DNA of 64,000 nt from positions 45,818,001-45,882,000 of the forward strand of contig OX597828.1 of assembly GCA_951406725.2 (NCBI GenBank). The letters run 5' to 3'. The translations under genes were made by a program, and so were the position numbers. Source of the stretch: Octopus vulgaris. Lineage: Eukaryota. The notes beneath the pieces were generated by a model that was not told the DNA's origin, did no database searches, and worked only from the letters and a program-made list of their open reading frames with translations. Of the stretch, positions 12,191 through 59,114 are shown one piece after another. Each line of letters begins with the position of its first letter. Within the stretch, counting starts at the first letter, position 1.

Positions 12191-13094
12191 ATAATTTCAA
12201 CAATTGAGGGTAAAATTAATTAATTATTAATCAATTTCACCAAGTATTCAGTATGTAAAGGGACCATTTAAGGCGAATTCAAAATATTACATTTTATAAA
12301 GGGCTTAGTAAAATAAATTACTTTGCCACATACTGAACTCATTAGAAATAGCAGCCAAAAAAATTTTTTTAGCCATTTCTAATACTTAAAGAAAATTTCT
12401 CTCAGATAGTGCTTACTCAAAATAGCCCACGAAGGTATGGGGGTAAAAACATTAAAAAATCACAAGTGCAAAGGTTATTTGAGAACGTACGTTTCTAGAT
12501 CAGCCAAATACAATTCGACATTTCTTTCGTCAGCTCAAAATTCCTTAATTCGGATTTGTAAACACTGAAAGTAGGAGCATACCCTTTTAGCGACTTTTCA
12601 CCTCCGAAGATCCGTTCAGACTAACAGTGCCAACAAATTCAAAATATGCAAGCGAAGAATTTCTGCCCTCCCCTTTCCACCCACGTGGGCTAACCTAGCA
12701 AACACCATAATTTTATCGGTGAAAACCGAAGCATTAGACAGAGAGAAATGAATTATAATTTCAACAATTGAGGGTAAAATTAATTAATTATTAATCAATT
12801 TCACCAAGTATTCAGTATGTAAAGGGACCATTTAAGGCGAATTCAAAATATTACATTTTATAAAGGGCTTAGTAAAATAAATTACTTTGCCACATACTGA
12901 ACTCATTAGAAATAGCAGCCCCAAAAATTTTTTTAGCCATTTCTAATACTTAAAGAAAATTTCTCTCAGATAGTGCTTACTCAAGTATTTTCTTTAAGTA
13001 TTAGAAATGGCTAAAAAAATTTTTTGGGCTGCTATTTCTAATGAGTTCAGTATGTGGCAAAGTAATTTATTTTACTAAGCCCTTTATAAAATGT
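12191..13094 (-). mobile_element. Non-coding retrozyme/Penelope-like element: 564-bp unit, 230-bp terminal direct repeat and inverted terminal segment, inserted in (TA)n
   Basis: 12191-12420 recurs almost exactly at 12755-12984. 12988-13094 is an inverted copy of part of it. An HHR lies in the unique middle, and (TA)n flanks both sides. Confidence 0.75.
12478..12539 (-). ncRNA. Type I hammerhead ribozyme motif
   Basis: Minus strand: UUUGAG CUGACGA A-AGA..GUCGAAU-UGU-AUUUGGC..UCU-A GAAAC GUAC GUU CUCAAA. 6-bp stem I, palindromic stem III ACGUACGU; the closing pair of stem II is A.A. Confidence 0.75.
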
Positions 13095-13599
13095 TATATA
13101 TATATATATATATATATATATATATATATATATTATTCTTTTATCGGTTTCAGCTCAAAGCTGCGGCCATGTGAGGGCGTGCGGTGGGTGTGTATTTTTT
13201 CGTGTATTTTTTATGTGTGCCACCCGACGGATTTTATTTCTGCCACCCGACGGATTTTATAGCAGTGACCATTGTGTAGAGCTGTTTACCAACTGACGGC
13301 CACGTGATCAAACGCACATACGAACACATAGAACAGTACACACACACATGTTTCTAAGTAGATTTTGGCTCGCCCCATATAATACACCTAATATTCTTTA
13401 AATAGTCAGAACTTCAGTCTCGGTCACAAAGAATATCTAAGCACCCTGTGCTCCCACCCACCGGAATGACCGCTGCCTGACCTGTTAAAACCTTCAACGC
13501 ACCCACCACCAGTTTTCAACATACATTGATAAACAGTTTGGCCATGGGCTCTTAGGAGCCTCGTTCGATTTGTTTTGCTCCGCCTCTGTTCTGTTTTTG

Positions 13600-13900
13600 T
13601 TTTTTCCAACGGATTTCCTATTTCTTCCTGAAGAGAAAGATACAATATGGTCTCCTTATTCAATCGGAATTTGGTAAATTGTGCCTTTCGAAACACGTGT
13701 AGAATGCAATAAAACGATTTCTGTTCAATCTTCGCTCAACTCCATTTCTTCAATTCACTAATAATATTAAAATTCAATTATCCGCACCAACGCACGGTTG
13801 CAACACCATATGGTTGTACCTCCAACCGTGCTGTCTTCTGCTGTGATTTTTGCTACCAAGGTATCGGTTAAACTTTTGATTAATCTGCAACAAGATTATT
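13600..13900 (+). mobile_element. HHR-bearing non-coding repeat (diverged inverted relative at 14590-14880)
   Basis: Collinear blocks caactccatt, tccgcac, caaccgtg and ttgctacc.aggtatcggtta are shared with the reverse complement of 14590-14880; ends next to (TA)n. Confidence 0.75.
13625..13704 (+). ncRNA. Type I hammerhead ribozyme motif with extended stem II
   Basis: UUC CUGAAGA GAAAG-A-UACAAU...AUUGUG-C-CUUUC GAAAC ACGU GUA GAA. Palindromic stem III, GUA triplet, stem I only 3 bp. Confidence 0.75.
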
Positions 13901-14101
13901 CATCTTTCTATTTCACAAAATATATATATATATATATTATATTATAATAAATTAGAGACAAAACCACTATATATATATATTTATAAATTTAAATAATAAG
14001 GGTGAAAAATTAAATATTAATTTTATTAATATCAATTTAATACCACTGGCCTAGCATACTGAAATATCTGAAGGTTCAGAAAAATGTATTAAATACATAC
14101 A

Positions 14102-14517
14102 GGCGCAGGAGTGGCTGTGTGGTAAGTAGCTTACTAACCAATCACATGTTTCCGGGTTCAGTCCCACTGCGTGACATCTTGGGCAAGTGTCTTCTGCTAT
14201 AGCCCCGGGCCGACCAAAACCTTGTGAATGGATTTGGTAGACGGAAACTAAAAGAAGCCTGTCGTATATATGTATACATATATATATATATATGTATGTG
14301 TGTGTGTTTGTGTGTCTGTGTTTGTCCCCCTAGCATTGCTTGACAACCGATGCTGGTGTGTTTACGTCCCCGTCACCTAGCGGTTCGGCAAAGGAGACCG
14401 ATAGAATAAGTACTGGGCTTACAAAGAATAAGTCCCGGGGTCGATTTGCTCGACTAAAGGCGGTGCTCCAGCATGGCCGCAGTCAAATGACTGAAAGAAG
14501 TAAAAGAGTAAAAGAGT
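14102..14517 (+). mobile_element. SINE family A, full length
   Basis: ggcgcaggagtggctgtgtgg...ggttcagtccc...gtaaaagagtaaaagag. Confidence 0.9.
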
Positions 14518-14771
14518 ATATATATATATATATATATATATATATATATATATATATATAAGTATTTGAGTAATTGAATGAATTATCTTATTAAGGATAA
14601 TTCGAAAGATAACCGATACCTGGGTAGCAAATTCACATCAGAAAGAACACGGTTGAAGCTACGTTGCTAGGGCGTAGACTACGTGTCTTCGTGCGGAAAT
14701 TTGTATGTTTATTTTAAAATTATAAGTATATGAAAGAATGGAGTTGAACGAATAGTTAACAAATATCCTTT

Positions 14772-14856
14772 ATTTTCGACATATGTTTCGAAGGCTGCAT
14801 ATTCCTAATTCCGAAGGAATAAGGAGTACATTATGCAGATTTCTCTTCAGGAAAAT
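14772..14856 (-). ncRNA. Type I hammerhead ribozyme motif with extended stem II
   Basis: Minus strand: AUUUUC CUGAAGA GAA-AU-CUGCAUA...UAUGCAG-CC-UUC GAAAC AUAU GUC GAAAAU. Perfect 6-bp stem I, intact core, GUC triplet. Confidence 0.85.
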
Positions 14857-15196
14857 CAGGGAAACTTATGTCGACATCAAAATGCACAAAAAACTTTTAG
14901 CTGACCGCTCTCAAGGAGCCCATGGTGATAATAAATAAATAATAAATAAAGCCAAGAACATATTTTTAAATGTGGTACTTATTCTATCGTTCTTATTTGC
15001 CGATACGTGATGCTTCGGGGACGTAAACAAACCTACACTCATTGTCGAGCCGTTGTACGGGGCAAACATAAACACATACAAACACACACACACATACATA
15101 CATACATACATACATACATACATACATACATACATACATACATACATGCATACATACATACATACATACATACATACATACATACATACATACATA

Positions 15197-15608
15197 CGTG
15201 GCTGTGTGGTAAGTAGATTTCTTATCAACTACATGGTCCCGGGTCCAGTTCCACTGCGTGGAATCTTGGGCAAGTCTCTTCTACTATAACCTCGGGCCGA
15301 CCAAAGCCTTGTGAGTGGATTTGGTAGACGGAAACTGAAAAGAAGCCCGTCGTATATATGTATATATATATATATGTATATATGTACGTGTGTGTATATG
15401 TTTGTGTGTCTGTGTTTGTCCCCCTAACATCGTTGACAACTGATGGTGATGTGTTTACGTCCCCGTAACATAGTGGTTCGGCAAAAGATACCGATAGAAT
15501 AAGTACTAAGTTTACAAATATAAAGTCCTGGGATCGATTTGCTCGACTAAAGGCGGTGCTCCAGTATGGCCGCAGTCAAATGACTGAAACAAGTAAAAGA
15601 GTAAAGAG
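15197..15608 (+). mobile_element. SINE family A
   Basis: Head, body and tail all match family A. Confidence 0.88.
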
Positions 15609-57620: not shown

Positions 57621-57715
57621 ATATACATATTTCTATATTGAAGAGATGAGGAATTACGTACATTATTTACACTATTTACAATTGACCGATATTTCTCCTA
57701 ATCTTGTTTGTTGTT

Positions 57716-57761
57716 AACACAACGTTTCGGCTGATATAAACCCCAGCCTTCATCAGGTGTC
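57716..57761 (-). ncRNA. Minimal type I HHR motif (inverted arm of SINE D)
   Basis: Minus strand: GACAC CUGAUGA A GGCUG-GGGUUUAUAU-CAGCC GAAAC GUU GUGUU. Confidence 0.75.
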
Positions 57762-57826
57762 TTGGGGGAAATTTCGAACCTGGGTTCTTATTCCTAAGGT
57801 ACTTAAACTCTACGCCATATGCCCGT

Positions 57827-58194
57827 GGGCATATGGCGTAGTGGCTAAGAGCGCGGACTACTAACCCCAAGATTCCGATTTCAGTTCCAGATAGTGACCT
57901 GAATAATAATAATAATAATAATAATAATAATAATAATAATAATAATAATAATAATAATAATAATAATAATAATAATAATAATAATAATAATAATGATAAT
58001 AATAATAATAATAATAATAATAATAATAATAATAACAACAACAACAACATCGAAAAATACCTTTGGAATGAGACCCTAGTTTCCAAATTTCCCCAAGACA
58101 CCTGATGAAGGCTGGAGCGTATATCAGCCGAAACGTTGTGTTAACAACAAACAAGATGAGGACAAATATCCGTCAATTGCAAATAATGTAAATA
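57827..58194 (+). mobile_element. SINE family D: tRNA-like head, (AAT)n and HHR-containing tail, with a head-to-head inverted partial copy at 57632-57824
   Basis: A box tggcgtagtgg; palindromic junction tacgccatatgccc-gt-gggcatatggcgta; tail 58057-58194 is the reverse complement of 57661-57801. Confidence 0.8.
58097..58142 (+). ncRNA. Minimal type I HHR motif
   Basis: GACAC CUGAUGA A GGCUG-GAGCGUAUAU-CAGCC GAAAC GUU GUGUU; the palindrome AACGUU replaces stem III. Confidence 0.75.
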
Positions 58195-58261
58195 TTATAT
58201 ATGTATGTATGTATGTATGTATATATTTTATCTTTTGTTTCAGACATGAGATTGAGGATCA

Positions 58262-58638
58262 ACACAGAGAGGAAAAACAAGGACAGACAAACGGATTAAG
58301 TCGATTATATCGACCACAGTGCGTAACTGGTACTTATTTAATCGACTCCGAAAGGATAAAAGGTAAAGTCGATCTCGGCGGAATTTGAACTCAGAACGTA
58401 GCAGCAGACGAAATACCGCTAAGCATTTCGCCCGGCTAGCTAACGTTTCTTCCAGCTGGCTGCCTTACAAGCGAGACACATAATGGATTACTTCTATCGA
58501 ATCTGAAACAGTAAAACTTCTTCAAATTTAGATATCATCCAGAAACGAGCCAGCCACAAGACTTGTATAAAATCACTCAGAAGTACTATCCAGCCTCTAG
58601 TCTGCAAGCAAGCTATCTTCTCCTTCACTCTCTTTCTT
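58262..58638 (-). repeat. Inverted duplicate of 54925-55300 (flank plus SINE B 5' part)
   Basis: Same ~175-bp flank and same flank/SINE junction (ctcgcttgt|aaggcagc). Confidence 0.88.
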
Positions 58639-59079
58639 AAACAGTGAATATGCCGCTCCCTGATAGATGGCCATTTCTATCTATCTTCAATTTGTTTCAG
58701 TCATTAGATTGCGGTCATGCCGAGGCGCCACCTTAAAGGGTTTAACGAAAGAAATCTACTGTGGTACTTCTTTGTTAACCGTGATGCTAATTCTCTCGAG
58801 CCCTTTTGTCGAATCGCTAAGTAACGACGATGTAAAAAACTAACACCAGTTCTCAGACGGTGGTTGAGGAGGAGCATGATATAAACACACGTATGTACGA
58901 GTATACATACATAGATTGTGTGTATATGTATATGTATATATATATATATATATATATATATATATATATATATATATATATATATGTATAGTTAATCCAA
59001 ACAAGAAAGCACAAAAAACACAACAACGCGAGGACGTGGAACAAATATAGTATTATTGGACGCTCAGGAAAGAAGGAGG

Positions 59080-59114
59080 GTCTAACGTTTCGAGCGGAGC
59101 TCTTCGTCGGAAAC
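59080..59114 (-). ncRNA. Minimal HHR motif with U4C core change
   Basis: Minus strand: GUUU CCGACGA A GAGC-UCC-GCUC GAAAC GUU AGAC. Confidence 0.6.

Follow-up and report, generated by a model that had tools for sequence, protein, structure and literature searches.

Hammerhead Ribozyme Families of Penelope-like Type in an Octopus vulgaris Genomic Window

Introduction

Minimal type I hammerhead ribozymes are a described feature of Penelope-like elements (PLEs): Cervera & de la Pena (2014; PMC4209133) report the motif class, opposite-strand pairs, and the U3-A8 variant (here and throughout, published work is cited from the accessible parts of each source). We analyzed a 64,000-nt stretch of the Octopus vulgaris genome (assembly GCA_951406725.2, contig OX597828.1, positions 45,818,001 to 45,882,000; hereafter "the window"), in which a first-pass annotation had listed 12 hammerhead motifs. 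The 12 sites are eight repeat families, here A–H, of PLE-type minimal type I hammerheads, a known kind, and the bulk of the observation is known biology. The points that go beyond it are a natural G3-C8 family, a PLE footprint on tandem repeats that lack an open reading frame (ORF), and family H, which resembles a short interspersed element (SINE).

Described PLEs leave a recognizable insertion signature. A 5′ truncation with an adjacent inverted copy is characteristic of them (Craig et al. 2021; PMC8557442), and a PLE protein nicks AT-rich DNA, primes inside its RNA, and uses uncut RNA (Frangieh et al.; PMC11167929). In the same work, the PLE hammerhead cuts only with protein, and a C3G/G8C mutant is partly active. 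For metazoan retrozymes without long terminal repeats (non-LTR retrozymes), PLEs have been called a "strong candidate" for mobilization (PMC7229834), a role that Li et al. (2026; 10.64898/2026.07.22.740005) argue from co-occurrence and kinship. SINE-like hammerheads are reviewed for Schistosoma as Sm-alpha and Sj-alpha (PMC6765202).

Natural core variants are also documented: PMC3088659 lists U3-A8, a viroid U4C, and U.U at 10.1-11.1, with G3-C8 absent from the parts examined, and PMC3884650 and PMC8495972 give G3-C8, in their accessible parts, as an engineered variant only. In giant squid, 235 hammerheads have been counted (PMC6962438); for octopus hammerheads, we found no such description in the portions of the literature examined.

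Twelve Sites Form Eight Families of PLE-Type Hammerheads

The window is AT-rich (35% GC) and rich in microsatellites, within an assembly of 2.8 Gb. A type I hammerhead-like layout is present at all 12 annotated sites. We scored them with a strict descriptor requiring the core, a stem II of at least 3 bp, a perfectly palindromic stem III, H at the cut site, and a stem I of at least 3 bp. With a CUGANGA core, the window holds 5 strict matches against a mean of 0.025 (maximum 1) in 40 local dinucleotide shuffles; allowing any Watson–Crick 3-8 pair, it holds 7 against a mean of 0.2 (maximum 1). A reversed/complemented control of the window gives 0. The motifs thus exceed chance, and the first-pass estimate of about eight families agrees with our count of 8.

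A looser scan picks up 10 of the 12 sites; 57478 was seen in a separate scan and 59080 in its family alignment. The core N3-UGA-N-N8-A / GAAA / UH with a 3-8 Watson–Crick pair is intact at 10/12 sites (exceptions 59080 and 57478), and strict pairing is perfect at 7/12, the others carrying one defect or a hairpin stem III. Stem I is only 3 bp at 13625 and has a mismatch at 29362. Two generalizations of the first-pass annotation need narrowing. Its CUGANGA core, assigned to every site, does not apply to 27746/27829 (GUGAACA) or to 59080 (CCGACGA), and its nearly universal palindromic stem III is interrupted at 57478 by the loss of U16.1 (C at 16.1) and replaced at 19382 by a near-palindromic hairpin.

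Forty arbitrary 10-kb stretches elsewhere in the genome (400 kb) yielded 15 strict matches—9 C-G, 5 U-A, and 1 G-C at the 3-8 pair—against 0–2 in each of 10 shuffles. At ~35 per Mb, this extrapolates to a genome-wide total on the order of 100,000; the window is ~3× richer than arbitrary DNA, yet not special in kind. The Rfam check that had been suggested returned 0 matches of any family at gathering score in the 84 kb searched, hammerhead included; by E-value, nearly all of the 150 matches listed, out of 310, were microRNA models on microsatellites, with no hammerhead among them. Repeat-finder output on the window was likewise dominated by microsatellites.

Set beside the minimal PLE hammerheads of PMC4209133, the window families share the type I topology, the G10.1-C11.1 pair, the palindromic stem III, the U3-A8 variant, the position in terminal repeats, and, in D, G, and H, the additional base at 9.1. 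In both cases, one genome houses many families, and copies on opposite strands lie in close pairs. The window families differ in a G3-C8 family, not reported in the parts of that paper examined, in a U4C fixed in the young coding family G, in an A.A at 10.1-11.1 in family A, and in the long structured loop II of A, B, and F.

Families B, D, and G Are 5′-Truncated Ends of Coding PLEs

Three families are contiguous, in longer copies elsewhere in the genome, with frames encoding a reverse transcriptase (RT) and a GIY-YIG endonuclease; their window copies are consequently 5′-truncated ends of coding PLEs. The window copies of B and G are as follows.

13543-13919 (boundaries approximate), plus strand: family B, divergent subfamily, truncated PLE 3′ end; hammerhead 13625-13704
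14562-14931 (boundaries approximate), minus strand: family B, truncated 3′ end of a coding PLE; hammerhead 14772-14856
57405-57618, plus strand: family G, older copy, PLE terminal repeat; hammerhead 57478-57513, position 16.1 mutated
58990-59183, minus strand: family G, young copy, PLE terminal repeat; hammerhead 59078-59114, core CCGACGA (U4C)

The B sites 13625 and 14772 are related (~75% identity across subfamilies), and the best 25 B loci show 5′ truncation of varying extent. The longest B copies (L251, L252) run into RT/endonuclease frames that end ~570 nt upstream of the ribozyme. The B frame matches RVT_1 (E 0.0021) and its Atlas neighbors are RT-type clusters (0.96–0.97); its endonuclease is recognized from the motif only, making B the weakest of the three for linkage to a C-terminal GIY-YIG. 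B 5′ ends cluster near a CRE/TATA-like motif (10/24 between −112 and −68), but query bias affects this count, and we draw no conclusion from it.

The two G sites, 57478 and 59080, are related to each other. In 3 of 5 long G loci (L461, L462, L463), a U4C hammerhead flanks the PLE frame on both sides, and one G frame is open for 816 aa (RVT_1 E 0.0016, GIY-YIG E 0.0079). A ribozyme-bearing repeat on both sides of the ORF was seen for G and not for B or D in the loci fetched.

These results bear on the view of the first-pass annotation that all families are non-autonomous and moved in trans. Its premise, the absence of a Penelope ORF, is correct: tblastn finds no PLE ORF fragment in the window. 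Within the loci sampled, its conclusion holds for A, C, E, and H; its tie of the motifs to PLEs and retrozymes also stands. For three of the eight families, however, the missing ORF is no proof of non-autonomy, since B, D, and G are contiguous with RT and GIY-YIG frames elsewhere; as an account of the whole set, the view is hardly tenable. The genome is rich in such frames, with 148 of 150 scored GIY-YIG candidates matching.

A young coding family (L061–L065, e.g. L063:2342-4684) has many open 781-aa RT + GIY-YIG frames and a U3-A8 hammerhead in the terminal repeats on both sides in L061, L063, and L064. Upstream of these frames lies a further one, open for as many as 479 aa, that Pfam does not clearly match, and the 3′ region holds CRE/CCAAT/TATA-like repeats. 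Another coding PLE (L066:4700-4900; 574-aa open frame) has, by eye, a U4C hammerhead-like motif in its 3′ region. Compared with Neptune-type PLEs (PMC8557442), the octopus elements agree in RT plus C-terminal GIY-YIG, in the CX2-5CxxC linker (parent of D), and in 5′ truncation, adjacent inverted copies, and microsatellite targets; the extra upstream frame of the 781-aa family is a difference.

Family D and Its Sister Lineage Exchange the 3-8 Pair

Family D stands out by its core, GUGAACA, whose G3-C8 pair the first-pass annotation had overlooked, as it had a ninth family with two decayed copies (~4513, plus strand; 34535, minus strand), which is the sister of D.

27607-27958, no strand assigned: family D, two PLE 3′ ends arranged head to head and flanked by (TA)n, center ~27812
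27746-27795, minus strand: hammerhead D, left arm, GUGAACA (G3-C8), G at 9.1, 5-bp stem II, AAUAUU, 7-bp stem I
27829-27878, plus strand: hammerhead D, right arm, G3-C8 core
4508-4700, plus strand: sister family of D, decayed copy with U3.G8
34335-34540, minus strand: sister family of D, second decayed copy

An exact 20-mer around the D core has 6,323 genome matches, against 218 for the same 20-mer with another base at position 3 (C3-G8 not occurring among the 100 listed); G3-C8 is therefore the state of the family. The coding parent was reached through a CA-rich upstream extension common to 8 of 70 D loci. A 22-mer from this extension has 249 genome matches; among 30 loci fetched with it, GUGAACA lies downstream in 24 and a same-strand endonuclease match upstream in 21, with both in 16, where the core stands ~1 kb downstream. 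D frames stay open for at least 416 aa and contain the YVDD motif, the linker CQSNCAVC, and a GIY-YIG domain (E 2.8e-4, slightly below cut-off). The linker fits the CX2-5CxxC pattern of Neptune, a candidate clade for the D parent.

The sister family has 5,391 genome matches, with U3-A8 in 92 of the 100 listed. Its 3′ flank aligns with that of D outside the ribozyme: for four copies, 0, 0, 12, and 23 of 1,000 2-mer shuffles reach the observed score, compared with 158–497 of 500 for seven unrelated families. Long sister copies run into a GIY-YIG frame ~48–50% identical to the D endonuclease. In a 23-row alignment of D and sister, the 3-8 pair is U-A in 12 rows, G-C in 10, and U.G in 1, the D rows having been fetched with a pattern that fixes G3 and C8. 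One stem II pair (10.3-11.3) is also altered on both sides. This covariation amounts, like that at 3-8, to one event. The exchange of G3-C8 for U3-A8 between sister PLE lineages is thus a natural double change at a tertiary pair; the swapped pair may have been kept because a 3-8 tertiary pair is still required.

The hammerheads, above all the G3-C8, U4C, and A.A variants, might be catalytically dead and persist only because they give the PLE protein a structural handle or ride along as passengers, which we regard as unlikely, though a serious alternative. Every copy keeps the sequence upstream of the cut site, so that the template was uncut RNA; catalytic mutants insert normally in vitro (PMC11167929); 8 of 9 Xenopus retrozyme dimers stayed uncut (10.64898/2026.07.22.740005); and stem III of D pairs weakly (−0.2 kcal/mol for the isolated 6-mer). 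Against this, a double change that keeps the 3-8 Watson–Crick pair while other core positions stay intact is what selection on an active fold would produce, and C3G/G8C partly rescues a PLE ribozyme (PMC11167929). If it cleaves, the G3-C8 family would be a new natural variant: in the literature examined, we found G3-C8 as a laboratory mutant and not as a natural hammerhead. The families or the variant may already stand in Repbase, Dfam, SINEBase, or paper supplements.

Rare D copies carry A3-U8, the fourth Watson–Crick pair (L486, C2:56248166, C2:59417701), and may be chance double mutations. Long D copies (L397, L410, L416, L420, L424) show branch-point- and acceptor-like sequence exactly where short copies begin; as a guess, the short copies could derive from spliced RNA. 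A candidate TATA box directly upstream of D was rejected, its 24 matches having unrelated flanks.

Families A, C, and E Are ORF-less Tandems

In the loci sampled, families A, C, and E are ORF-less, circularly permuted tandems of 480–565-nt units, and in this they are retrozyme-like; family F is treated with them.

12194-13094, minus strand: family A, ORF-less and retrozyme-like, a 564-nt monomer present ~1.4 times with a (TA)n tract on either side; inverted 5′ segment at ~12986-13094
12478-12539, minus strand: hammerhead A, CUGACGA, A.A at 10.1-11.1, stem III ACGUACGU, predicted cut between 12484 and 12483
19260-19603, plus strand: family C, partial unit (full length ~505 nt) of a permuted tandem that lacks an ORF, with (TA)n at the end; hammerhead 19382-19443
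29323-29640 (boundaries approximate), plus strand: family E, old ~480-490-nt permuted unit; hammerhead 29364-29420
30220-30810 (boundaries approximate), plus strand: family F, part of a ~1.2-1.3-kb AT-rich non-coding element; hammerhead 30339-30449, 12-bp stem II

In 14/25 A loci, sequence found downstream of the ribozyme recurs upstream of it, at a period of 527–567 nt. In C, 8/20 loci are tandem, 7 of them with a period of ~505 nt; the ~480–490-nt period of E was established across loci. The longest ATG frames are 43 aa in A and 76 aa in C. Copies of A are 97–100% identical to the window copy and form tandems of 1–2 units only; the A.A mismatch at the base of stem II is common to all 25 loci fetched. 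The A monomer is highly self-paired, folding at −162.6 kcal/mol (z −6.4; reached by 0/100 shuffles). Contigs of four public runs, three of them guessed to be RNA and one unlabeled, cover the A monomer and join it head to tail, a join that tandem DNA gives as well.

These families resemble the non-LTR retrozymes of PMC7229834 and 10.64898/2026.07.22.740005 in being AT-rich tandem repeats that code for no protein and each hold a type I hammerhead, in the strong self-pairing of A, and in their co-occurrence with PLEs. Their units are longer (480–565 vs. 150–450 nt) and their ribozymes palindromic, non-canonical, and of PLE type, and their tandems are short, permuted, and marked by 5′ inversions of PLE type (the accessible text of PMC7229834 does not use "inverted"). 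Circular RNA of these families is a prediction here. Donor-like motifs stand directly upstream of the C and E ribozymes, and nine family C ribozymes form an array with ~1.7–2.4-kb spacing (L255–L256).

Long F copies have at least 760 nt of AT-rich upstream sequence in common and start mostly at one place. Among the loci fetched, F showed no ORF, tandem, or parent element; its apparent tandem repetition was rejected as due to flanking repeats, and PLE fragments near F loci and in L263/L456 were rejected as parents, being neighbors or insertion targets.

Family H Joins a tRNA-like Head to a Hammerhead Body

The two H sites of the window form one inverted arrangement.

57641-57826, minus strand: inverted arm, head fragment fused to body; hammerhead 57716-57761
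57826-57903, plus strand: tRNA-like head with A-box-like and degenerate B-box-like motifs
57902-58035, plus strand: internal (AAT)n spacer
58036-58196, plus strand: body with minimal hammerhead 58097-58142, CUGAUGA, A at 9.1, ACGU

The head–spacer–body unit is real. In loci fetched for other reasons, a head is followed by a ribozyme body in 8 of 9 cases by pattern, the ninth having a degenerate body by eye. Sense heads were detected 11 times among 30 loci, with an A box in 8 and a B box in 7. Presumably, the head resembles tRNA-Arg; ARAGORN called no tRNA in it, Rfam gave no tRNA match, and a relaxed run gave noise. No PLE frame lies near H in 30 loci, and none of the 30 is tandem (0/30).

H, with its putative promoter of the RNA polymerase III (Pol III) type followed by a hammerhead, resembles Sm-alpha and Sj-alpha (PMC6765202). 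It differs in not being tandem, in the minimal form of its ribozyme, and in carrying both an (AAT)n spacer and inversions of PLE type. SINEs dependent on PLEs were not described in the portions of the literature examined.

Octopus already has SINEs, OK, OR1, and OR2, which we take to be tRNA-derived and similar in size to H. The paper on these tRNA-derived elements (Ohshima & Okada 1994) is cited in PMC4758252 and PMC10886601; OR2 has been classed as a CORE SINE. H could be identical with one of the three or distinct from them all, the comparison being by description, not by sequence.

Beside these units, a lone H head fragment without spacer or body lies at 28387-28449 of the window. In L082, L085, L096, and L103, the same 3′ end of another element, closing in (AAT)n, precedes the H body; we assume that it resembles an R4/Dong-type non-LTR element targeting AAT repeats.

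With all families in view, an extension of the B, D, and G result can be weighed: each of the eight might be a coding-PLE end left by truncation, with unsampled parents in the case of A, C, E, F, and H. B, D, and G, too, appeared as short non-coding repeats before their scarce long copies turned up (only 8 of 70 D loci extend upstream), and PMC4209133, in the parts examined, reads most single motifs as truncated PLEs. In A and C, however, and likewise in E, the downstream sequence of the family recurs upstream with a constant period, which leaves no room for an ORF; a tRNA-like head begins H in loci picked for other reasons; and long F copies mostly share a starting place. We consider a coding parent for every family quite improbable.

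Insertion Footprint and a Proposed Route of Copying

An inverted copy lies upstream in 15/25 loci of A, 4/25 of B, 12/20 of C, 17/30 of D, 5/14 of E, 0/25 of F, 1/25 of G, and 15/30 of H; downstream, it occurs once in G, once in H, and in none of A–F. In a larger D sample, truncation with an adjacent inverted copy is seen in 38/70 loci. The inverted arm repeats the same 3′ part of the element, with the head included in H, and (TA)n adjoins the ends of most families. Copies keep the whole ribozyme and stop at two or three fixed points downstream, which fits the mechanism described in PMC11167929.

These features suggest how the families were copied. The window is best explained, and probably correctly, by B, D, and G as truncated coding-PLE ends and by A, C, E, and H as non-coding elements likely copied in trans by PLE enzymes, with cuts predicted only as dimers or with protein. 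The PLE-type 5′ inversions point to insertion of A, C, E, and H by PLE enzymes. The PLE protein would nick AT-rich DNA, and reverse transcription would start inside uncut RNA just downstream of the ribozyme, so that most copies would be short ends keeping the whole ribozyme. B, D, and G would be retroposed in cis and A, C, E, and H in trans; the template would be circular or multimeric RNA for A, C, and E, and RNA made by Pol III for H. Cleavage, slow and dependent on dimers or protein, would process tandem transcripts and yield circles for A, C, and E.

The footprint also bears on the possibility that H is an ordinary SINE dependent on a long interspersed element (LINE), or a chance fusion, and that A, C, and E are satellites amplified as DNA. 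The 3′ end of another element precedes (AAT)n in 4 of the 26 displayed H loci, one family C array is spaced at ~2 kb, and an RNA stage of A, C, E, and H is a prediction. Head-to-head inverted duplicates, with the H head included, lie almost only on the 5′ side, however; copies are scattered across many contigs, (TA)n closes the elements of A, C, and E, and A tandems comprise only 1–2 units. This makes a LINE- or DNA-based origin improbable.

Several observations weigh against PLE-mediated copying in cis and trans as set out above. Inverted copies are missing from the 25 F loci (two in another look) and occur in only 1/25 of G, and the locus counts include arms of one insertion and hence are not independent. 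No full-length intact copy of D was retrieved, its frame running off the locus edge, and none of B was seen, its frames being broken in the copies at hand; Pfam scores of the B, D, and G frames lie under curated cut-offs, with RT and GIY-YIG motifs visible directly. Several monomers fold into alternatives rather than the hammerhead. Cleavage, RNA ends, circles, Pol III transcription, and the trans partner are predictions, and no PLE with the same 3′ end as A, C, E, or H was found.

Implications of the Octopus Families

Taken jointly, the families could amount to a coding PLE, recently amplified to over 6,300 copies, with a working natural G3-C8 ribozyme, ORF-less retrozyme circles integrated by PLE enzymes, and a Pol III–transcribed, tRNA-headed SINE that uses a PLE and no LINE. 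All of this together we hold only tentatively, as rather doubtful. If true, C-G, U-A, and G-C would all serve as 3-8 pairs in one genome, with G-C and U-A in sister lineages. A natural G3-C8 in an amplifying PLE, beside a U3-A8 sister, is the evolutionary counterpart of the laboratory rescue experiment. The exchange argues that the active fold is selected for, even though PLEs insert in vitro without cleavage. Descriptors fixed on CUGANGA overlook the G3-C8 family.

So far, the case for which enzyme mobilizes animal retrozymes has been made from co-occurrence and from kinship between sequences. The inversions of PLE type on the ORF-less tandems are a footprint at the level of insertion, and the young family A makes the question testable. 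A PLE-dependent SINE, if true, would widen the known SINE–partner pairs.

Further Observations in the Window and Genome

The window also holds decayed hammerhead-like arrangements at 11429-11497 (plus strand), 21865 (plus strand), 31118 (minus strand), and 37067 (plus strand). A repeat family at 8749 (plus strand), 45333 (plus strand), and 54352 (minus strand) has CUGANGA and a short hairpin, then CGAAU replacing GAAA, and may represent a ribozyme that is decayed or a variant one. Tandem units of 182–184 nt, belonging to a very common repeat with large inverted pairs, lie at 36401-36762, 42488-42850, and 55155-55574; the descriptors found no hammerhead core in them. Elsewhere, at L078:2164-2353, a long perfect hairpin stands between (TA)n tracts, beside an inverted pair of another hammerhead family.

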